Origin: Candidatus Hydrogenedentales bacterium
Lineage (GTDB): Bacteria > Hydrogenedentota > Hydrogenedentia > Hydrogenedentales > SLHB01
Reading direction: 5' to 3'
Assembly (NCBI GenBank): GCA_050950105.1
Contig: JBMNGZ010000005.1
Coordinates: 684,168-748,167, forward strand
Length of the DNA: 64,000 nt
Positions 3,431 through 48,211 of this stretch are shown here, in pieces. Position numbers and translations under genes: made by a program. Within the stretch, counting starts at the first letter, position 1. Each line of letters begins with the position of its first letter. Under the pieces are notes generated by a model that was not told where the DNA came from, searched no databases, and was given only the letters and a program-made list of their open reading frames with translations.

Positions 3431-3568
3431 GGTGTTTCTCCCTGCCAGCGTTGGGCATTAGCTTAGCCGCTGGAACAACCGTAAGCAAACCGCCGAATGC
3501 GGCATAATTGAGCGCAAAACACACGAGAAACAGCATCGTATCGGCCAAATAGCCGGGAACGGCTGGCA

Positions 3569-3989
3569 CATTCACGTTCTAAGTGCACTGGAAGCGATTT
3601 TTCGTTTCTGCAGGAAGATTTCAGTGGGTGCTTGCTATCCGAGGCATTTTGGGGGCGATTGTTGAGTTCATCGACTATTTCCAGGAGTTTTTCTAATGTA
3701 GGGGTGGCCCACCGAGGCCGCGTATCCGGATCGTCCCTGCGGCTGCGTTAAAGAAGGGAAGACCCCGTGTCTGCCCATCCGGATAGCCCCAGCACATCTG
3801 GCGATCCCCTGGCGTTCGCGCTCCGGTTGTAGGGGCAGACCCCTGTGTCTGCCCATCCGGATAGCCCCAGTGGCTGCCTTTAAGAAGGGCAGACACAGGG
3901 GTCTGCCCTTACGCGCGGCGTAACTCCCGAACAAGACTCATCTACAGAAATGGGCCCAACCCAAAAACCGTGCACTTTAGTATTAGAAT
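3569..3989 (-). mobile_element. Degenerate IS30-family element, ~420 bp, transposase gene deleted. Structure: IRR (CATTCACGTTCTAAGTGCAC), antisense remnant of the last ~40 transposase codons (frameshifted), three GTAG-initiated REP-like palindromes, ~60 bp of 5' UTR, and IRL (rc CATTCTAATACTAAAGTGCACGG).
   Basis: Imperfect terminal inverted repeats, 16/21 match. Minus-strand translation gives TLEKLLEIVDELNNRPQN..., which matches the IS30 transposase C-terminal LNNRPRK motif region. The ends are shared with locus 2 at 43343 and 43679. Confidence 0.55.
3700..3912. repeat. Cluster of REP-like GC-rich palindromic units, consensus GTAGGGGCAGACCCC(C)GTGTCTGCCCATCCGGATAGCCCCAG plus inverted variants
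   Basis: A direct ~37-bp repeat occurs twice (3756-3792 and 3833-3869), with an inverted copy at 3873-3910. Each unit has an 8-bp stem GGGCAGAC/GTCTGCCC. The same units recur at 43.8-45.0 kb. Confidence 0.75.
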
Positions 3990-4085
3990 GCGCGGCTTTT
4001 GTCGGTGGAAGAAATCTTACGTCGAGACTGCTACAATGCCCTCGATGACATCTCGGAAAAATCCACCATCGGGGAGGACGGATAA

Positions 4086-40339: not shown

Positions 40340-41277
40340 GGCGCGGGCTCCGCCCGCAACGCGTGGGCGAGCGCGTCGCCGATCGCGCGCAGGTTGTCGA
40401 GTACCTCTTCCCGCAGTGGATCCAGCGCGACTACAGTGCCCTGAATCGCGTCGGCTACCGATTGGGCGCTGCGCTGGTCGAATTGCGGTTGCACGAAGAT
40501 GGTATGCACGCCGTCTGCCTGCGCCTGCTCGATGAGTTCCTGGAGCTGTCGAGGCGTTGGCTTTTTGCCGTCCATTTCCACGGATTTCTGGCGCAGCCCG
40601 TACGTCTCCGCAAAATAACCGAGCGCCGGGTGGTAGATGTAGAACGTGCGCCCCGTGAAGGGCGCGAGCTGTTCCCGCAAATGATGATCCAGGGCGTCCA
40701 GCTCTCCCTGGGTTGCCGCGAGGTTCTGCGCGTAATCGTCTGCGTGCGCGGGGTCGAGCCGCAAGAACGTCTCGGCGATCGTGGCCGCCATGGCCTTCAG
40801 CATGACGGGTGACATCCACACGTGCGGATCCATATCGTCGGCATGGGCGTGTCCGGCCGCGTCCTCACCGTGCTCGTGCGAAGTGTCCGCAATACGCGCT
40901 AAGCCGTCGGCAAGATCTTGAATTACCAGCGACGGAAAGTTGGCTTCGATCCGTTTGGCAAGCTCCAGTTCAAACGGAAATCCACCCACATGGAAATACG
41001 CCGACGCACCGCCAAGCGCCATCACCTGTTTCGGCGTGGTGCTGAAGGTGTGGGGACCCTCTCCAGGGGCAAGAAGGGTCGTGACGTGCACCTGATCTCC
41101 ACCGAGCGCTCCAGCAAGCGCGGCCAGCGGCGGGATGCTGACAAATACCTCAAACGGCCCATCACCTGAAGCGCCGTGCCTGGCCGGTGCAGGCGCAGGG
41201 CCGCATCCGCACACGAATAGCAGCGCCGCGAACAATACGGGCAGCGCTCCGCCGGCCATTAAACGTTTAGCGTTCAT
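40336..41277 (-). CDS. znuA: Metal ABC transporter substrate-binding protein (ZnuA/TroA family) with His-rich loop
   Basis: Lipoprotein signal ...LFVCGCG. His/Asp/Glu-rich loop DTSHEHGEDAAGHAHADDMDPHVW is typical of ZnuA. Confidence 0.75.
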   Translation of the reverse strand: MNAKRLMAGGALPVLFAALLFVCGCGPAPAPARHGASGDGPFEVFVSIPPLAALAGALGGDQVHVTTLLAPGEGPHTFSTTPKQVMALGGASAYFHVGGFPFELELAKRIEANFPSLVIQDLADGLARIADTSHEHGEDAAGHAHADDMDPHVWMSPVMLKAMAATIAETFLRLDPAHADDYAQNLAATQGELDALDHHLREQLAPFTGRTFYIYHPALGYFAETYGLRQKSVEMDGKKPTPRQLQELIEQAQADGVHTIFVQPQFDQRSAQSVADAIQGTVVALDPLREEVLDNLRAIGDALAHALRAEPAP

Positions 41278-41560
41278 GATGCCCCGTGGCCTCCGGCGCC
41301 TCCTCGGCCATACACACAATGCGAATCGCATGGCAGTCCTCACACTGTTCCACATTGTGCGTGGTCGCGAAATGATCCCAGTGTTTCCGCTGTTTGGGCG
41401 ACAAGGTGCCCGCGCCCAGGCAAAGCGGGCAGACGTTCTCAAGCGCAGCCAGAATCGCCCGGCGGATGAATTCCGAACGGTTCCCGATGCCCTGCATCGC
41501 CTGCGACAGGCCTTCATCGACTTTGAAGGTGATGATCTCCTGCTTCTTTGCTGAAGACAT
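41267..41560 (-). CDS. Ribbon-helix-helix (CopG/NikR-like) regulator with Cys/His-rich C-terminal metal-binding tail. First gene of the znu-type operon.
   Basis: MSSAKKQEIITFKVDEGLSQAMQGIGNRSEFIRRAILAAL is the RHH. CPLCLGAGTLSPKQRKHWDHFATTHNVEQCEDCHAIRIVCM...GHH is the Cys/His-rich tail. RBS ggagg 7 nt upstream. 3' end overlaps the znuA start. Confidence 0.55.
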   Translation of the reverse strand: MSSAKKQEIITFKVDEGLSQAMQGIGNRSEFIRRAILAALENVCPLCLGAGTLSPKQRKHWDHFATTHNVEQCEDCHAIRIVCMAEEAPEATGHHER

Positions 41561-41819
41561 GCGCGCCCTCCGGGTTCTTTTCTCGTAACTATAATACTTT
41601 TTATTACCAAACGCAACGGCGGCTCCGACTATTCCAGGAAAGGCCCGAAATCTGGCGCCCGCAATCGCCATTGAAGAGCTGCTCGTAAATTTGCGTTCAC
41701 CGCACTTTTTGCTGTTTAATCAAATCGATCACAAGCCCACTAAGTTGAAGAAAGCCAAAGTGCGCCGGGAAAAGCCGAAAAATCGGGTTGCTGGCGCACG
41801 AACGCGGGGAGGACGCACC

Positions 41820-42705
41820 ATGACTACGACTCGAATGCTTTCCGTTGCCTTACTGGGAGCTGTCTTGTGCTTTTCGATCCTGGCTGCAGAGTCAGAGCCG
41901 GCCGTAGAACATGTGGTCGTCATTGGCGTGGACGGCATGACGGCCAAATCGCTCGAGGCTGCCGAGACGCCCAACATGCACGCGCTGATGGCAACGGGCT
42001 CATACACGCGTGCGGCGCACGCGGTCAAACCGACCGTGAGCGGCCCGAACTGGGGTTCCATGCTCATGGGGAGCAAACCCGAAACCCACGGCGTGGTGAA
42101 TAACAACTGGACGCTCGACACGGAGAATCCGTTTCCAACCGTCTTTACGGCCTTGCGCGCGGCCGAGCCGGAGGCCACCGTGGTCGCGGCCTACGAATGG
42201 GGCTCTTTTGGCCGCTTGTTCGTCGATGAAGACGTGACCCCAGCGTATCGGCGTGGATAAGGAAGCCATTGAAAACGATACCTCAGAAAACGCGGCTTCC
42301 CGCTACATCGCCACGCAGGTGGCCGAGTGCATCAAAGAGAAAAAACCTCGGCTGACCTTTATCCATCTCGACCTGGTCGATCACGCGGGCCATTCCCATG
42401 TCTACGATTCGGAAAAATATAACGCGACGGTTGGCGAAGCGGACAAGCTCGTCGGCCTCATTGTGAAAGGCATCGACGACGCCGGCATCCGAAAAAACAC
42501 CGCCATCTTCGTCGTCTCCGATCACGGCGGCATCGACAAAGGCCACGGCGGCGATACGCCCGAAGAAACCATCGTGCCGTGGATCGTGTCGGGGCGCGGG
42601 CATAGCCCAGGGCGCCGCCATCCCCGACGGCATCAGCGTCGCCCCAGACCGGGCCCACCATCGCGGCCCTCCTGGGCGCCGAATTGCCCGCGCGCTGGAC
42701 CATGA
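41820..42705 (+). CDS. Secreted type I phosphodiesterase / nucleotide pyrophosphatase (AlkP-core superfamily). Frame break near 42250.
   Basis: Signal peptide present. VVIGVDGMTAKSLE...TPNMHALMATGSYT ... (second frame) IHLDLVDHAGHSHVYDSEKYNATVGEADKLVG...VVSDHGG matches the PF01663 pattern. Confidence 0.6.
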
Positions 42706-42757
42706 AGCCCGTGACCCAGATTTTGAAAAAGTAAAAATCTCCCGACACCACCCGCAC

Positions 42758-42960
42758 GACATCGCCCCGGGGACTGCGACATAACGGCACTCCCCGGGGT
42801 ATTACGACAGGACATCGCTCCCGGGGACTGCGGCATAGCGGCACTCCTCGGGGCATTACGACATGACATCGCCCCCGGGGACTGCGGTATAACGACACTC
42901 CTCGGGGCATTACGACCCGACATTGCCCCCGGGATGGCTCCGCACGGAGCCTCCCGGGCC
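42758..42960. repeat. 54-bp tandem hairpin minisatellite, ~3.7 copies. Unit GACATCGCCCCGGGGACTGCGACATAACGGCACTCCCCGGGGTATTACGA.
   Basis: Copies at 42758-42808, 42809-42862 and 42863-42916, plus a partial copy. Each unit carries an inverted repeat CCCCGGGGACTGCG...GCACTCCCCGGGG. No unique spacers. Confidence 0.8.
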
Positions 42961-43195
42961 TCAACTAATTGCCCACAGACCATTCCTGCTTTTGATGGCG
43001 CGCACGCGGTCCGCCTCGCGGAAACCTCTGCTCTGTCATCCGGTCCGCCATCTGCCCCGGCCACCACACGGAGATCAGCCTACGCAGCTCGGAACCTCTG
43101 GGTGACCGTGTTTTTCGACCGGCGTCTGCGCACAGTTGTGCAGATTGGCGCGGAGGGCGATGGAGATGGGGGAGAGGTGATTTGAGGGAAGAAAC

Positions 43196-43274
43196 TGGTC
43201 GGGGCGGCGGGATTCGAACCCGCGACCTCCTGCTCCCAAAGCAGGCACGCTAAACCGGGCTGCGCTACGCCCCG
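43196..43274 (-). tRNA. tRNA-Pro (anticodon UGG)
   Basis: Reverse complement CGGGGCGTAGCGCAGCCCGGTTTAGCGTGCCTGCTTTGGGAGCAGGAGGTCGCGGGTTCGAATCCCGCCGCCCCGACCA. 7-bp acceptor stem, anticodon stem CCTGC/GCAGG, loop TTTGGGA with TGG at positions 34-36, T-loop GGTTCGAATCC, encoded CCA. Confidence 0.85.
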
Positions 43275-43342
43275 ACCGGATTGAGACGGAAGATAGGATA
43301 CCATAGAGGACGGGTGCGAAGCACGCGTTTCGTTGGGCGCGG

Positions 43343-43678
43343 CATTCTAATACTGAGTGCACGGTTCCTGGGTTTAGCCCTTTCCCGTCGGAGCCGTCCG
43401 TCGCTCACCGTGAGCGGCGGCGGACGATGACAGAGGGAAGGACGGCCTTTTTCCTGTTGGTGAGTCTTGAGCGAGGAGGTGGAAAAGAAAAAGACATCGG
43501 GACCCATTCGGTATTCTTGGAGATAGCAACCAACCAAGAGCGAAAGGAATCCCGATGTCCTACACCCATCTTACCCCAATGGAGCGCGCGAAGATCGAGT
43601 TTTTTTTCGCACAGGGATGGAGCTACACTGCGATTGCCTGCCAATTGGGCCGGCATCGCATGACCATTAGCCGCGGTA
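43343..43678 (+). mobile_element. IS30-family IS, 5' portion only: IRL CATTCTAATACTGAGTGCACGG, ~190-bp leader, first 39 transposase codons
   Basis: The IRL matches the rc of the locus-1 right end (21/23). The leader is ~75% similar to locus-1 internal sequence. It is truncated by insertion of the next element at 43679. Confidence 0.55.
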
Positions 43679-43691
43679 CATTCACGTTTTA
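43555..43691 (+). pseudogene. IS30-family transposase N-terminal HTH fragment (truncated after the TISR motif)
   Basis: MSYTHLTPMERAKIEFFFAQGWSYTAIACQLGRHRMTISR|GTFTF*. Matches the IS30-family N-terminal consensus MxYxHLTxxER...LGR..STISRE. Diverges exactly where the second element's IRR begins. Confidence 0.65.
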
Positions 43692-45040
43692 AGTGCGCGC
43701 AAGGCGATTTTCCGTTTTTGCAGGAAGATTTCATTGGCTGTTCGATATCCGAGGCATTTTGGGGGCCGGTTGTTTAGTCCATAGACTATCTCCTGAAGTT
43801 TCTCTAATGTAGGGGCAACCTCCTGGGTCGCCCATCCGGATTGTATTGGCAACCCCCACGCGCTGCAGTAACCTGGATGCACCAGGGCAACCCCAACGCG
43901 GCAGCGTTCCGGAATGTAGGGGCAGACCCCCGTGTCTGCCCATCCGGATCGCCCCTGCGGCTGCGTTAAAGAAGGGCAGGCACAGGGGCCTGCGCCTACG
44001 CGCTGCGCAAAGCAGTCCCCGCGCGGCCGGCCATCCGGATCGCTCACGCACTTCGACGGGACGCTGTGAGCTGGAAGTCACACCCCCCAAAATCCAAGCT
44101 GCAAAACTCCACCTCCGAATCGGTTGACGCCGATTCTCCTCTGCCCGCGGAGGATGGGTAGCCTGGGAGCGCCGACGTCCTCGTCGGCACACGGTTCAGC
44201 CCCGCCCGCGTGGGACAGGTGCGCCGCATCTCAATCTCCAGTTCGGGTTCTTATGTCCCCCGCTGATGGAGCAAAGTATGCCTCGCTGGCCAGCACCGGT
44301 TCCGGGTCTTCTGTCCCCCGCGGGCGGGGGTGGACACGCGCCCCGCGTGGCCGGGGGTGGATTGTGCGGGCAGACACGGGGGTCTGTCCCTACGCGCTGC
44401 GTAAAGCAGTCCCCCGCGGTTGCCGTCCGGATTATTTGGGCAACCCCCACGCGCTGCACAACCTGGGTATGTCGCGGCAACCACAACGCGGCAGCGTTCC
44501 GGAATGTAGGGGCAGACCCCCGTGTCTGCCCATCCGGATCGCCCCTGCGGCTGCGTTTAAGAAGGGCAGGCACAGGGGCCTGCCCTATGCGCTGCGCAAA
44601 GCAGTCCCCGCGCGGCCGGCCATCCGGATCGCTCACGCACTTCGACGGGACGCTGCGAGCTGGAAGTCACACCCCAAAATCCAAGCTGCAAAACTCCACC
44701 TCCGAATCGGTTGACGCCGATTCTCCTCTGCCCGCGGAGGATGGGTAGCCTGGGAGCGCCGACGTCCTCGTGCGGCACACGGTTCAGCCCCGCCCGCGTG
44801 GGACAAGTGCGCCGCATCTCAATCTCCAGTTCGGGTTCTTATGTCCCCCGCCTGATGGAGCAAAGTATGCCTCGCTAGCCACCACCGGTTCCGGGTCTTG
44901 TGTCCCCCGCGGGCGGGGGTGGACACGCGTCCCCGCGTGGCCGGGGGTGGATTGTGCGGACAGACACGGGAGTCTGCGCCTACGCGCTGCGCAAAGCAGC
45001 CCTCGCGGTTGCCGTCCGGATTACTTGGGCAAGCCCAACG
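43679..45040 (-). mobile_element. IS30-derived non-autonomous element inserted into the IS30 copy above. Structure: IRR CATTCACGTTTTAAGTGCGC, antisense remnant of the last ~43 transposase codons (…LEKLQEIVYGLNNRPPKCLGYRTANEIFLQKRKIALRALKT*), and a ~1.2-kb array of REP-like palindromes. Right boundary degenerate.
   Basis: The 130-bp IRR plus C-terminal-remnant 'leader' (43679-43812) is ~85% identical to 3569-3705. Its junction with the REP array is identical in both loci (…TCTAATGTAGGGG). LNNRPPKCLGY matches IS30 LNNRPRKTLGF. Confidence 0.55.
43849..45029. repeat. Two tandem copies of a 590-bp unit (43849-44438 and 44439-45029, ~95% identical). Each unit is built from GTAG-initiated REP-like palindromes and CATCCGGAT motifs.
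   Basis: Direct read-through alignment; period 590 bp. Sub-elements include GTAGGGGCAGACCCCCGTGTCTGCCCATCCGGATCGCCCCTG, GAAGGGCAGGCACAGGGGCCTGCGCCTACGCGCTGCG and GCGGGCAGACACGGGGGTCTGTCCCTACGCGCTGCG. A third unit starts and is truncated (GGGCAAGCCCAACG). Confidence 0.8.
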
Positions 45041-45173
45041 TGGTTGCGTTCCTGCTGGCGGATCGGCCAAAATGGGTCGTCCGGGTGGTTTTTGATTTCA
45101 CGGTTCGCCATACAATGAGGCGCGGGATGTTTTGTACGGAATCCCGGCGTCTGTCTGGCTGAAGGAGACGGGT

Positions 45174-45772
45174 GCATGAGGAAGGTGTTGACGTTTATCG
45201 GAGTGGTGGTGGTGGTCGGCGTCGTGGCCTCGTTTAATCACTGGGGTACCGCTTGAACAATGTCATCAATCTCCATACTGAGATGGCGAAGAACGTGCGG
45301 CAATCGCTGGTTGACCGGGGTATGCGCCCGATCCCCTGGGAATTGCTGGCGAAGACCCAGGGCGAATTCGAGTCGGTGCCCGTCTATCCGCCGGAATTGA
45401 AGGAACACGAGGGGGAAACAAGTTATGTTTGTGGGCTACGGCATGCCGCTGAGCGGCGATCTGCCGTCGCATGATCATGACCATGATCATGCCCACGCGT
45501 CGATGCTGCCGCGTGTTCTGCCGCTTCTCGAGCTTTTCAAAGGGCATGTCCACACGCAGAAATATAACGGGGTGCCGGAGGTGATGCTGACCCCTCTGCC
45601 GCTTGAATGCTATAGGAAACGCTTGCCGCCACTAAACCAGGCCGTCTATGTACGCCCGGCCGAGCCTATTGATTTTGCGGACGGCTCGGTGATCGGATTT
45701 CGAGGCACGCTGGAACTGCGGGGAAATGGAAGGCCCAAGTTTTTCTTCGTCCTCACGAACGCCGAATGTTGA
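45174..45772 (+). CDS. DUF3299-domain protein with N-terminal TM segment. At least 2 frame breaks (~45250, ~45420).
   Basis: MRKVLTFIGVVVVVGVVASF (TM), then MRPIPWELLAKTQGEFESVPVYPPELKEHEGE, then GYGMPLSGD...VPEVMLTPLPLECYRKRLPPLNQAVYVRP. This resembles the DUF3299 core 'GYMVPL...EFLLVP...PPPPNQIVHV'. Confidence 0.5.
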
Positions 45773-45853
45773 AATAATGTCGCGTGGGGGAGGGGCGTTG
45801 CGTCTCCGGCTGTGTGGGCTGGCTGCTCCGGCGCCGGGGGATGAGGAATCTCG

Positions 45854-47961
45854 TTGACCGCCAGGACGTGCACGAATCCAAACGAGGCGTTCGAGCCCGG
45901 AACGTCGTCGCTGGAGCAAACGGTGGCCGCGTTGCCCGGAATTGGCGACAAACGCGCTGAACTGCTCCGTAATCTCGACATCGTCACAATCCGCGATCTG
46001 CTGTTTTATTTACCCCGGACGTATGAAGATCGCCGCCGGGCTTGCCCGATTGCGCGCCTGAAGGAAGGCGACACCGCGACCATCCGGGCCGTGGTGGTGC
46101 GCTCGGCCACCCGGCGCCTGCGCCGCAGGCTCGCCGCCACCGAAGCCCTGCTGCGCGACGACTCGGGCGAAATCAAGGCCATCTGGTTTGGATTGGGGTT
46201 TCTCTCGCGCACGTTGACCTCCGGCAGGGAAGGGTTTTTCACGGGGACGGCCGGGAAATGGAACGGTCTGAGCCTGCGGAATCCCGACTACGAATTGTTG
46301 TCACATGACGACGAAGATCGGCTCCACACCGGCCGTATCGTGCCCGTCTACCGCCTCACCGAAAAGGTCTCCCAGCGGATGTTCCGCCGCTGGGTCCGCA
46401 TCGCTCTCGACGAAGCCCGGGATCTCGTCGAGGACCGGTTGCCTTCGGATATCGCCCGGCGCCAGGCCCATCGTGACGTGCGCCGGGCCATCGAGGCCGT
46501 CCATTTTCCCGGCAGCCTGGAAGAGGCCCGCAAAGCGCGCGACCGGTTCGCTTACGAAGAACTCCTCGGCATTCAACTCGGCATCCTTCAGGGCCGGGCG
46601 CGTCGTGCCCATGAGGAGGATGGCTACTGCCACGTTATCGACGGGCCGCGCCTGAACGCCCTGCGGCAATCGCTCCCGTTTGCGCTGACACGCGCCCAGA
46701 CGCGCGCCGTGGACGACATCCTGCGGGACATGGCGTCCGTTCGTCCGATGGTCCGGCTCCTTCAGGGGGACGTGGGTTGTGGAAAGACGGTCGTAGCCCT
46801 GCATGCGCTCGCGGCCGCCGCCGACGGAGGCTACCAGGCCGCGCTGATGGCCCCCACCGAGATCCTGGCCGAGCAGCACGCGCTGAACCTGCGTGAAACG
46901 CTCGAGCCGCTGGGCATGACGGTCGAGGTCCTGACCGGCTCGACGGGCGCCGCCCGCGCCGTCCGCCAACTCGCGGCTGCCGGCAGCGTCGACGTTCTCG
47001 TGGGCACCCAGGCGCTGATCCAGGAAAAGACCGGCTTCCGCAACCTGGGACTGGTTATCATCGACGAACAGCACCGCTTTCGGCGTCGTCCAGCGCGACG
47101 CCCTCGTGCAGAAGGGCGCTGCGCCCCGACATTCTCCACATGACCGCCACGCCCATCCCCCGCACCCTGGCCATCACGGTCTATGGCGGCATGGACATCA
47201 GCGTCATCGACGAACTGCCGCCGGGACGCCAGCCCGTCAAGACGCGCCGCGTCACCCCGGCCAAAGTCGAACGACTCTGTACGCCTACATCAGCCGAACA
47301 GGCCCGGAAAGGGTTCCAGACCTATATCGTGTGCCCGCTGGTCGAGGAATCCGACAAGCGCGCCCTCACCTCCGTGGTCCACCATTTCGAGGAGCTGTCC
47401 GCCGGACCCTTCTCGCGAACTTCGCACGGGGCTCCTCCACGGGCGTCAAGGCCTTCGCGGAGAAGGACGCGGTCATGCGCCGTTTCAAGCGAGGGCGAAC
47501 TCGACGTCCTCTTCACCACCACCGTCATCGAGGTCGGCATCGACTGTCCCTAACGCCACCACCATCGTGATTGAAGACGCGCCCCAGTTCGGGCTCACCC
47601 AGCTCCACCAGCTTCGGGGCCGGGTCGGGCGGGGCGCCGAGCCGTCCCACTGCTTTCTGCTGGGCAAGCACACGCCACGCCCGACGGCAAGAAGCGCGTC
47701 GAGGTCATGTGCGCCACCGGCAGCGGCTTCGACATCGCCGAGGCCGACCTCGAACTCCGCGGGCCCGGCGAATTCCGCGGCGTGCGCCAGTCCGGCCTGA
47801 GCGACCTGCGCATGTCGCCGACCTGCTCCGCGACGTGCGCCTGCTCGAGCAGGCCCGCCGCGAAGCCGAGGCCATCCTGCAGCACGATCCCGGCCTTGCC
47901 GCGCCCGAATATCCAGGCCCTGGCCCGGCTCGCCCAACGCTACGACGGAATGGCCCTCTGA
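45854..47961 (+). pseudogene. recG: ATP-dependent DNA helicase RecG. Full-length homology but at least 6-7 frame disruptions (~47083, ~47410-47470, ~47552, ~47690, ~47810, ~47900).
   Basis: Wedge domain present. Helicase motifs LLQGDVGCGKTVVA, IIDEQHRF|, [31 protein letters not shown]|[28 protein letters not shown] and [19 protein letters not shown] are spread over at least 6 ORFs in three frames. The 47083 shift sits in a T-run (cgctttcgg). Confidence 0.8.
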
Positions 47962-48211
47962 TCCGGGACCTGCGCGGCGGACCAGCGCAAAGTCCTGGAC
48001 GCGATGGACAAGATGGACAAGAGGGATGCCCCGGCCCCTGACGATTCCGCTGGAATCGAGGCCGCGGGCACGGCCCCTTTCGCCCATACCGCCCATGGGG
48101 TCCACACGTCCACCGCCGATGGCCACCATCCGCCGAGCGGGGCCAGGCATGACCCGTTGTCCTCCCCCGGGGTGTCTGCTATAGTAGATCCGCGGGAAGG
48201 AGGGGCTTTCC

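Follow-up and report, generated by a model that had tools for sequence, protein, structure and literature searches.

How did two oppositely oriented fragments of an IS30-type insertion sequence, joined to each other and running on into a long array of palindromes, come to lie beside the tRNA-Pro(UGG) gene of a Candidatus Hydrogenedentales bacterium? We addressed this question in a contig stretch of 64,000 nucleotides, hereafter the window. Our preferred answer, to which we give a probability of roughly 60%, is that positions 43343-45043 (locus 2) are the fossil of a MITE-like IS30-family element: a copy inserted in a resident copy, a deletion followed, and the array was expanded by recombination. 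All features listed in the preliminary description (the tRNA-Pro gene, left inverted repeat (IRL), transposase N-terminus, right inverted repeat (IRR), transposase C-terminus, palindrome array, tandem repeat and a related locus 1) were found in the sequence (Table 1). The remnants are where that description placed them, with corrected sizes: the N-terminus spans 40 codons, the C-terminus 41 codons plus stop, and the array ends at 45043.

Table 1. Features of locus 2, its tRNA flank and locus 1 (window coordinates).
Feature	Position	Strand	Basis or details
tRNA-Pro(UGG)	43196..43274	-	ARAGORN; Rfam RF00005, 66.8 bits
Piece A, IRL CATTCTAATACTGAGTGCAC	43343..43362	+	tip at 43343, pointing right
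Piece A, untranslated leader from IRL to transposase start codon	43363..43554	+	sequence identity to L002 and L018
Piece A, IS30-family transposase codons 1-40 (HTH)	43555..43674	+	Pfam HTH_38, E=5.8e-10
Piece B, IRR CATTCACGTTTTAAGTGCGC	43679..43698	-	outer tip at 43679, element body rightward
Piece B, final 41 transposase codons (LEKLQEIVYGLNNRPPKCLGYRTANEIFLQKRKIALRALKT) and stop	43682..43807 (codons 43685-43807)	-	BLASTP and tblastn to L018 transposase
GTAG-palindrome array, BIME-like mosaic	43809..45043		BLAST-defined; repeat families D1-D9, I1-I9
Tandem unit 1	43832..44422		REPIN 43916-43999; core ~44040-44345; inverted REP 44368-44393
Tandem unit 2	44423..45011		REPIN 44506-44588; core ~44628-44935; inverted REP 44958-44983
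Third, partial D1 copy (to 45043) and joint to native DNA (from 45044)	45012..45056		alignment to relatives without the element
Locus 1, complete 422-bp non-autonomous copy	3569..3990	-	IRR, decayed C-terminal leader, REPs, ~60 bp of left-end sequence, IRL

The tRNA gene turns its 5' end toward the IS remnant across a gap of 68 bp, and the same adjacency occurs in L020 and L027-L029. The left part of locus 2, piece A, is a left IS30-type end. Its IRL agrees at 19/20 bases with that of a full-length IS30-family element (L018:258), likewise with L014 and with the complete MITE-like copies described below, and it matches the IRL of locus 1 (3990-3970); a further 2-4 bases on its outer side may form part of the end. 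The leader shares 79% identity with L002:4320-4488 and 76% with L018:308-533. The following codons share 55-56% identity with the first 40 residues of the L018 transposase (tblastn 55%, E=8e-9), a 333-aa protein with rve and HTH_38 domains that scores 281.5 bits against NCBIfam transpos_IS30 (NF033563; cut-off 80). As annotated, the open reading frame of piece A comprises 45 aa because it runs on into the adjoining IRR (…ISRGTFTF and stop), and the remnant protein is identical to P0001, which is named as a protein of a Hydrogenedentales MAG.

Piece B lies on the opposite strand. Its IRR begins four bases after codon 40 of piece A, and the intervening GGTA (43675-43678) possibly belongs to the IRR tip. 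This IRR agrees at 18/20 bases with the locus 1 IRR (3569) and at 15/20 with that of L018. The encoded C-terminus is 54% identical to residues 294-332 of the L018 transposase by BLASTP (E=3e-12), and tblastn extends the match to residues 292-332 (E=2e-8). Since NCBIfam and Pfam by themselves recognised neither the 41-aa fragment nor P0002, its identity comes from this match to L018. Both pieces are IS30-family remnants, as had been proposed.

Of the 333 transposase residues, tblastn recovered only 1-40 and 292-332. An autonomous IS has a transposase with both HTH and rve regions; locus 2 has no catalytic (rve) region, and a tblastn search with the L018 transposase found no active transposase gene anywhere in the window. 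The IRL at 43343 and the IRR at 43679 both point rightward, in contrast to the inverted pair that bounds an autonomous IS, and piece B has no IRL of its own. Correctly inverted pairs are present at locus 1 (3569/3990), L002, L017 and L018. Because its two ends face in the same direction, locus 2 is unable to transpose. It is an immobile, rearranged wreck of a small non-autonomous IS30-family element in which nothing points to a working system; we regard it as ordinary debris of mobile DNA that implies no cellular function.

The array takes the place of transposase codons ~41-291. It is a mosaic of REP hairpins of the GTAG type and inverted pairs resembling REPINs, together with direct-repeat motifs (D1/D2) and two cores rich in GC. 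With up to 3 mismatches allowed, the REP motif GTAGGGGCAGACCCC was found 8 times against 2.45 expected, confined to the two IS30-derived loci; we found no GTAG REP elsewhere in the window. The unit measures 26 nt and consists of GTAG and an 8-bp GC-rich stem. In the REP helix 93.2% of the cells are paired, two pairs are changed on both sides, and the covariation score was equalled or beaten by 1 of 500 shuffles. These are thus imperfect palindromes of 20-40 nt with a 5' GTAG that are kept as hairpins, the features by which GTAG REPs and REPINs are recognised. The array as a whole folds as DNA at -177 kcal/mol (z=-6.5). It resembles the RAYT-associated, GTAG-tagged REP/BIME/REPIN sequences (PMC3733652, PMC3116915) in the length and stem of the palindrome and its compensatory variants, in the short-spacer inverted pairs, in the mosaic clustering with other motifs and in variable copy number. 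Unlike these, the palindromes are not dispersed between the genes of the window, and some inverted pairs enclose 426 bp, core included. At the gathering score Rfam reported the tRNA only; its sub-threshold matches on the REPINs were to eukaryotic miRNA-hairpin models and are meaningless. We found no promoter-like sites, and terminator-like sites occurred in a chance number.

Most of the array is a tandem repeat, in which 43832-44451 aligns to 44423-45040 at 94.1% identity over 623 bp with a period of ~590 bp. TRF missed this repeat, since the longest period that it covers is 500. Unit 2 shares 94-95% identity with unit 1 and 96.9% with the only unit present in L027; its identity to a solo array in L025 is 83-91%. 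Unit 1 is present in L020 and its core segment is absent in L027; the copy number of the array varies between lineages. The second unit would have arisen by unequal recombination between the D1/D2 direct repeats (40-70 bp) that bracket each REP-core unit.

On the right, the sequence GGCAAGCCCAACGT joined to GGTTGCGTTCC at 45043/45044 resembles the internal GGCAACCCCAACGCGGCAGCGTTCC, which makes it a microhomology joint, as opposed to a transposon end. Relatives without the element align from 45044 onward, and the DNA to the right of the joint is thus native. The same joint occurs in L020, L021 and L027. A candidate continuation of the transposase on the minus strand at 45044-45102 (…ISR/EIKN…) raised the HTH_38 score from 38.7 to 45.8 bits and carried the BLASTP match to residue 43. 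We rejected it, as this native DNA is conserved in the element-free L019 and L022 and as neither protein nor DNA shuffles gave significance; another weak match of this kind, to the left of the IRL (…RNA…), was set aside on the same grounds.

Locus 2 belongs to a family with members at other sites. Positions 3565-3923 of locus 1 align to 43675-44010 (E=2e-54), the leaders of the two loci are 84% identical, and both contain the junction TCTAATGTAGGGG. The shared leader and junction are as stated in the preliminary description, and locus 1 turns out to be in addition a complete two-ended element. Further complete IRL…IRR copies of ~815-920 bp lie in different flanks in a related genome, at L002, L012 and L017, the latter two on one 519-kb contig. 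With the tips set by sequence common to the copies, 2-bp direct repeats flank L002 (AA) and L017 (CC); locus 1 is ambiguous in this respect and locus 2 has one end missing. The family ends are CATTCTAATACT…GTGCAC and CATTCA[AC]G…AGTGC. The copies have IS ends matching L018 and L014, encode no transposase and occupy several unrelated sites, which makes the family MITE-like and locus 2 a broken member of it. L018 and L014, from other metagenomes, represent an autonomous relative, an element of 1.23 kb whose IRs match and which lacks REPs. We found no similarity to plasmid records. A contig scan with the 19-mer ATCCGAGGCATTTTGGGGG gave a lone match in a cyanobacterial aminopeptidase gene, which we regard as chance.

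The composite of IRR, leader and REPs was held to have existed earlier and to have moved, and its recurrence at locus 1, L002, L012 and L017 bears this out. The junction of array and leader, CCCCTACATTAGA, ~130 bp inside the IRR, is identical at both loci of the window and in elements of the L002 type, whose flanks are unrelated; this requires that they descend from one composite. The second element of the preliminary description is indeed IS30-derived, but it is MITE-like with a ~300-bp GC-rich core, has lost its IRL, and its REP/core mosaic is found in L025 by itself, with no IS30 ends. Solo REPs are found at L002:2620-2730. Array, leader and IRR without an IRL recur in L010 and L026, and the array-leader junction of L026 is different; fusions of arrays with IS ends may thus have arisen more than once.

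IS30-family elements use a DDE transposase, and IS30 moves by copy-out/paste-in via an IR-IR junction. Members of the family retain both IRs, the 5' leader followed by a few codons of the N-terminus, and the final ~41 transposase codons; codons ~41-291 are replaced by the GTAG-REP mosaic and the core. For such non-coding copies, an IS30-type DDE transposase acting in trans on their ends could have provided the mobility. In IS30, IR-IR junctions attack inner IS30 sequence, and the resulting deletions and inversions begin at the IR edge (PMC9333248). An insertion into a resident copy would have joined the IRR tip of the minus-oriented piece B to codon 40 of the plus-oriented piece A. A later deletion would then have removed the IRL end of piece B and the rest of piece A, leaving as its right edge a short-homology joint to native DNA, the promoter region of the following gene. 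The joint at codon 40 fits an IR attack on inner IS sequence, in line with the insertion into another IS copy that had been put forward; the nesting itself is the simplest history and not a proven one, and it equals in number of events an inversion at a dimer junction followed by deletion. No un-rearranged allele was found, and we therefore infer the order of events.

That inversion deserves weighing as a possible, though not the probable, course. It would start from a single plus-oriented copy (IRL, untranslated leader, codons 1-40, array, C-terminal leader, IRR) or from a tandem dimer; the IRR of an IR-IR junction would have inverted the segment from array to IRR, and any second copy would later have been deleted. 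Compared with the complete L002, the left part of locus 2 is indeed on the plus strand and the remainder on the minus strand in colinear order. Moreover, no more than a few bases separate the array end at 45043 from the point at which array and N-terminal remnant meet in L002-type elements, which would be a coincidence under insertion and random deletion and favours the inversion of one element. IS30 junctions are known to yield inversions by targeting inner IS sequence (PMC9333248). However, the minus-strand transposase sequence ('REIKN') that such an inversion predicts at 45044-45102 failed to appear, the DNA there being native in element-free relatives. The dimer route further predicts a second copy or the remainder of the gene beside the IRL or past the array, and neither is present; it also requires a further deletion in addition to the dimer. 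We thus keep nested insertion and deletion as our reading.

The remaining explanations fare worse. The array could be a native repeat cluster upstream of the DUF3299-like gene into or beside which IS30-family elements, which prefer palindromic targets, inserted independently and decayed, the composite never having moved as a unit. The solo array in L025 and the differing junction of L026 would suit this idea, and REPs are established targets of IS elements (cited in PMC3733652). In the complete copies, however, the REPs lie between IRL and IRR and not outside them; the CCCCTACATTAGA junction is shared with elements that have their own flanks and 2-bp repeats; and no array lies in the matching intergenic position of the nearest relatives, L019, L022 and L024. 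A native origin is already contradicted for the leader-proximal part, and we consider it very unlikely overall. Still harder to maintain is a site-specific, island- or integrase-type event with the tRNA-Pro gene as integration hot spot, which the preliminary description had suggested. The DNA 3' of the tRNA does vary by lineage (a phosphodiesterase gene versus an MmeI-like restriction-modification gene), and the whole block, the tRNA-Pro gene included, is missing from L019, L022 and L024; for this reason the comparison with an empty tRNA flank that had been envisaged yields no empty site. But it is the 5' side of the tRNA on which the remnants are found, no further insertion site that we examined borders a tRNA gene (the smallest distance, in L012, is 5.4 kb), and we saw no integrase-like ORF among those inspected at 41-47.5 kb. 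We found no repeat of the tRNA, whereas a tRNA-targeted island is marked by an integrase and tRNA 3'-end repeats. No targeting of tRNA genes is known for IS30 transposases.

Least credible of all is an artefactual origin, in which assembly errors and partial chimerism of the MAG contig would have produced the 590-bp duplication or the odd joints. The window does carry many homopolymer indels that break genes, its sequence changes from L020-like to L019-like within recG, the L021 contig breaks within the array, and L027, at a coverage of only 1.5x, has one core unit. Yet L020, a JGI assembly of a different sample, is 99.56% identical over window positions 41200-46000 (4.8 kb); it contains the two units and the two joints, and its units differ from each other by the same 27 substitutions. 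Since this independent assembly has the same structure, an assembly artefact can be rejected for the duplication and for the joints alike, and the duplication noted earlier is real. L027-L029, a diverged lineage (96% identity), have both joints with one core unit, and the joint of codon 40 to the IRR was found in each of the three.

The relation to known systems follows from this anatomy. As in the IS30 family (IS30 of E. coli, IS1655 of Neisseria), the ends measure ~20-26 bp, two complete copies, L002 and L017, have candidate 2-bp target duplications where the family makes duplications of 2-3 bp, the transposase combines an N-terminal HTH_38 with a C-terminal …NNRPRK.LGYRTP.E.F motif, and an IR tip is joined to inner IS sequence, a product of IR-IR junctions (PMC9333248). 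In contrast to that family, locus 2 lacks the catalytic domain, has directly oriented ends and is not mobile, and L018, the nearest autonomous relative found, shares only about 75% DNA identity (74-76%) in its ends and ~55% in its protein. The terminal repeats of an autonomous IS, the lack of coding capacity, the several unrelated sites and the mosaic interior are shared with bacterial MITEs such as Correia/NEMIS, RUP and the Tn3-derived TIMEs (PMC4133298). Unlike in MITEs, the interior has been refilled by a separate repeat family (GTAG REPs and core) that also occurs alone, and at 420-920 bp the elements are larger than typical MITEs. In a limited literature search, we found no description of an IS30-derived MITE with REP content.

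For the uncultured phylum Hydrogenedentes, whose mobile DNA is little known, our results document a non-autonomous IS30-derived family together with an autonomous relative, and they show REP-type palindromes carried to new sites within IS ends. It is tempting, if speculative, to propose that in this Hydrogenedentales lineage the GTAG REP/REPIN and core sequences spread mainly as cargo of the IS30-ended element by way of its DDE transposase and not, or not only, in a RAYT-dependent manner. If true, this would be a chimeric transposable unit joining two repeat systems that are held to be mechanistically separate. Locus 2 also offers a natural example of the joints between IR tip and inner IS sequence previously described for plasmid-borne IS30.

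The proteins of the window gave no match in exact look-ups, on account of the indel errors. Word-indexed protein searches returned two matches for the remnants and three for an array ORF, and are a poor guide to the abundance of the element. The locus is a repeat-rich spot of variable copy number at which short-read assemblies break (L021, L028), and it is a source of spurious annotated ORFs, among them the 45-aa 'HTH protein' P0001, the 64-aa P0002 and a 215-aa ORF in L020.

Our analysis demonstrates that the locus beside tRNA-Pro (locus 2, 43343-45043) is a non-autonomous IS30 derivative whose interior is a REP array, and that it preserves a fossil joint between an inverted repeat (IR) and inner IS sequence. 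All features claimed for it in the preliminary description were found by ARAGORN, Rfam, Pfam, sequence reading and a repeat search (Table). It contains two oppositely oriented pieces: the plus-oriented piece A (IRL, leader and 40 codons), with nothing past codon 40, and piece B (IRR, C-terminal remnant and array), without an IRL. Locus 2 has no coding capacity and is unable to move, and nothing indicating a function was found there. Within the array, 43832-44451 and 44423-45040 are 94% identical over 623 bp; this tandem repeat, with a period of ~590 bp, was missed by TRF, for which the longest period was 500.

Table. Features of locus 2 and the adjoining tRNA-Pro region
Feature	Position	Length	Strand	Remark
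54-bp tandem repeat	42755-42933			3.3 copies, 88% matches; also in L020
tRNA-Pro(UGG)	43196-43274		minus	ARAGORN and Rfam
Spacer, tRNA-Pro to IRL		68 bp		rightward of tRNA
End sequence (IRL) CATTCTAATACTGAGTGCAC	43343			
Leader after IRL		192 bp		
N-terminal transposase ORF	start 43555			first 40 codons match Pfam HTH_38, E=5.8e-10
Second end sequence (IRR) CATTCACGTTTTAAGTGCGC	43679			four bases past codon 40
C-terminal remnant	43682-43807	41 codons + stop	minus	typical IS30 C-terminal motif
GTAG-tagged palindromes and other repeats	43809-45043			

The homology and common architecture claimed for locus 2 and the 3.57-kb locus were borne out: the latter aligns with 43675-44010 (E=2e-54), their leaders are 84% identical, and the junction TCTAATGTAGGGG is common to both. 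Since an IRL is also present at 3990, this element is complete, at 422 bp. A metagenome scan for a leader/start-codon pattern and a look-up of the 64-aa annotated ORF P0002 revealed further copies, complete but non-autonomous and ~815-920 bp long, at unrelated sites of a related genome. One copy (metagenome contig L002) has an Nramp gene on one side and a PBP gene on the other, and two (L012 and L017) lie on one shared 519-kb contig. These copies run in the order IRL, leader, ~20 N-terminal codons, REPIN, GC-rich core, REPIN, C-terminal leader and IRR, and their REP|leader junction is the same as in the window. With the tips set by sequence common to both copies, the flanking 2-bp repeats are AA at L002 and CC at L017; 2-bp target duplications are a known product of IS30. 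Because complete copies with the same junction and 2-bp flanks occupy unrelated sites, the 'composite', rightly described earlier as a pre-existing mobile unit, is a transposable MITE-like family derived from an IS30-family element.

On contigs L008 (2100-3000) and L010 (1800-2340), the right flank is as in L002 and the left flanks differ: L008 has a BcrAD_BadFG gene and an IRL, and in L010 the core abuts the CinA-side flank without an IRL. These differences could stem from recombination among copies within the population or from chimeric assembly of short reads across the repeat.

The scan also identified, in L018 and L014, a 1.23-kb element that has matching ends, lacks REPs and encodes a 333-aa protein with HTH_38 and rve domains; against NCBIfam transpos_IS30 (cut-off 80), this protein reaches 281.5 bits. 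The remnants at locus 2 correspond to residues 1-40 and 292-332 of this transposase, at 55% and 54% identity respectively, and no other fragments of it were found anywhere in the 64-kb window.

The palindromes of the array are 26-nt units with GTAG and an 8-bp stem, arranged as REPIN-like inverted pairs, and fit the published GTAG REP superfamily (PMC3733652). Their stems carry compensatory variants (93% of cells paired, two pairs changed on both sides), a covariation reached in only 1/500 shuffles, and a whole unit is far more stably folded than its shuffled counterparts (z=-6.5). Because a REP/core mosaic without IS30 ends occurs in L025 and solo REPs at L002:2620-2730, the REP/core is a separate repeat family that came to fill the IS30 derivative. 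REPs in the 64-kb window lie only inside the two IS30-derived loci. A further reading, in which IS30-ended units were the chief carriers of REPs to new sites in this lineage, is improbable. In related genomes, the GC-rich core (L002 4690-4830, L025 4430-4570) contains a ~61-bp unit with the hairpin TGCCGACGAGGACGTCGGCA repeated 2-2.5 times in tandem; the cores in the window carry this unit about once.

At the N40|IRR joint, codon 40 of piece A meets the IRR tip of piece B. This is exactly the product type known from IS30, whose IR-IR junctions, formed in circles or dimers, target hot spots and IRs as well as 'inner sequences of IS30 copies', with the resulting insertions, deletions and inversions beginning at the IR edge (PMC9333248). 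In relatives without the element (L019, L022 and L024), the 97-aa gene is followed directly by the DUF3299-like gene and recG, and homology to the window restarts at 45044; thus, 45043 is the last array position, and native promoter DNA follows. The joint at this right edge, GGCAAGCCCAACGT|GGTTGCGTTCC, resembles internal array sequence, which points to a short-homology deletion rather than a transposon end and would explain why piece B is without its IRL.

In the simplest history, one copy would have inserted into a resident copy, and a single deletion would have taken the contiguous block of the left end of B and the right part of A. We assign this nested insertion and deletion a probability of about 0.5-0.6. 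The proposed move into another IS copy is retained as this simplest history, which fits the junction attack, but it competes with an improbable rival, in which array, leader and IRR were inverted within one element or a dimer. Inversion is favored by the colinearity of locus 2 with L002, which is split between two strands, and by an array end within a few bases of the joining point of the N-terminal remnant in L002-type elements. However, a concrete version of it was refuted by the relatives without the element, since the sequence from 45044 onward is native, and inversion likewise requires one more deletion. The equivalent intergenic position in L019 (3820-3920) is occupied by an unrelated palindrome, cccgtttgaacgggga … tccccgttcaaacg.

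The window comes from a 1.16-Mb contig of a Candidatus Hydrogenedentales MAG, and the assembly is not clean. Relative to the independent JGI contig L020, bases are gained or lost in homopolymer runs at 42238, 42591, 42642, 43600, 44083-4, 45243-4, 45411 and others, splitting genes near locus 2: the phosphodiesterase gene, the DUF3299-like gene and recG are each broken into several ORFs. Several of the small indels that distinguish the two 590-bp units belong to this class as well and are likely sequencing errors. Locus 2 itself is corroborated independently. L020, 99.56% identical to window 41200-46000, shows the two joints and the two 590-bp units with identical between-unit substitutions, and the duplication is not an assembly artefact; the right joint is also covered by L021. 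Proteins that cluster with a 45-aa annotated ORF spanning the N40|IRR joint pointed to contigs L027-L029, which are 96% identical to the window and share the tRNA-Pro and both joints. Thus, the joints are old and common to two lineages, and array copy number alone varies: L027-L029 have one core unit versus two in the window, and their right edge carries an extra 56 bp of a small repeat.

Direct repeats of 40-70 bp (D1/D2), with three copies in the window and two in L002, lie on either side of each REP-core unit. Unequal recombination between them would account for the two units of the window and L020, the single unit and extra D1 copy of L027, and the duplication of REPIN and leader start in L002. 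Unit 2 shares 96.9% identity with the L027 unit and 94.4% with unit 1, so, judging from these identities, the duplication probably predates the split of the two lineages, and L027 would have lost or collapsed one unit.

The suggestion that tRNA-Pro served as an integration hot spot was not upheld: the remnants lie on its 5' side, and none of the other insertion sites examined adjoins a tRNA. The 3' side varies, which is a matter separate from the IS remnant. The window and L020 have a phosphodiesterase gene and, just downstream of it and upstream of the tRNA-Pro 3' end, the 54-bp tandem repeat; in L027/L028 (1-3565), this side is taken up by a large type IIG restriction-modification gene resembling MmeI/Eco57I. 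The tRNA is missing from L019, L022 and L024, together with everything between the 97-aa gene and the DUF3299-like gene. The block at window 41620-43119 differs between lineages, and the DNA 3' of tRNA-Pro looks like a variable island adjoining the tRNA.

Inside recG, the window switches its ~100% identity from the L020 population to the L019 population. Window 45100-46000 is 98.5-100% identical to L020 and ~73% to L019, window 46094-47093 is 98.5-100% identical to L019 and 80-85% to L020, and identity is intermediate beyond 47100. This mosaic of two populations (45100-48000) stems from either chimerism in the consensus assembly or genuine recombination within the gene.
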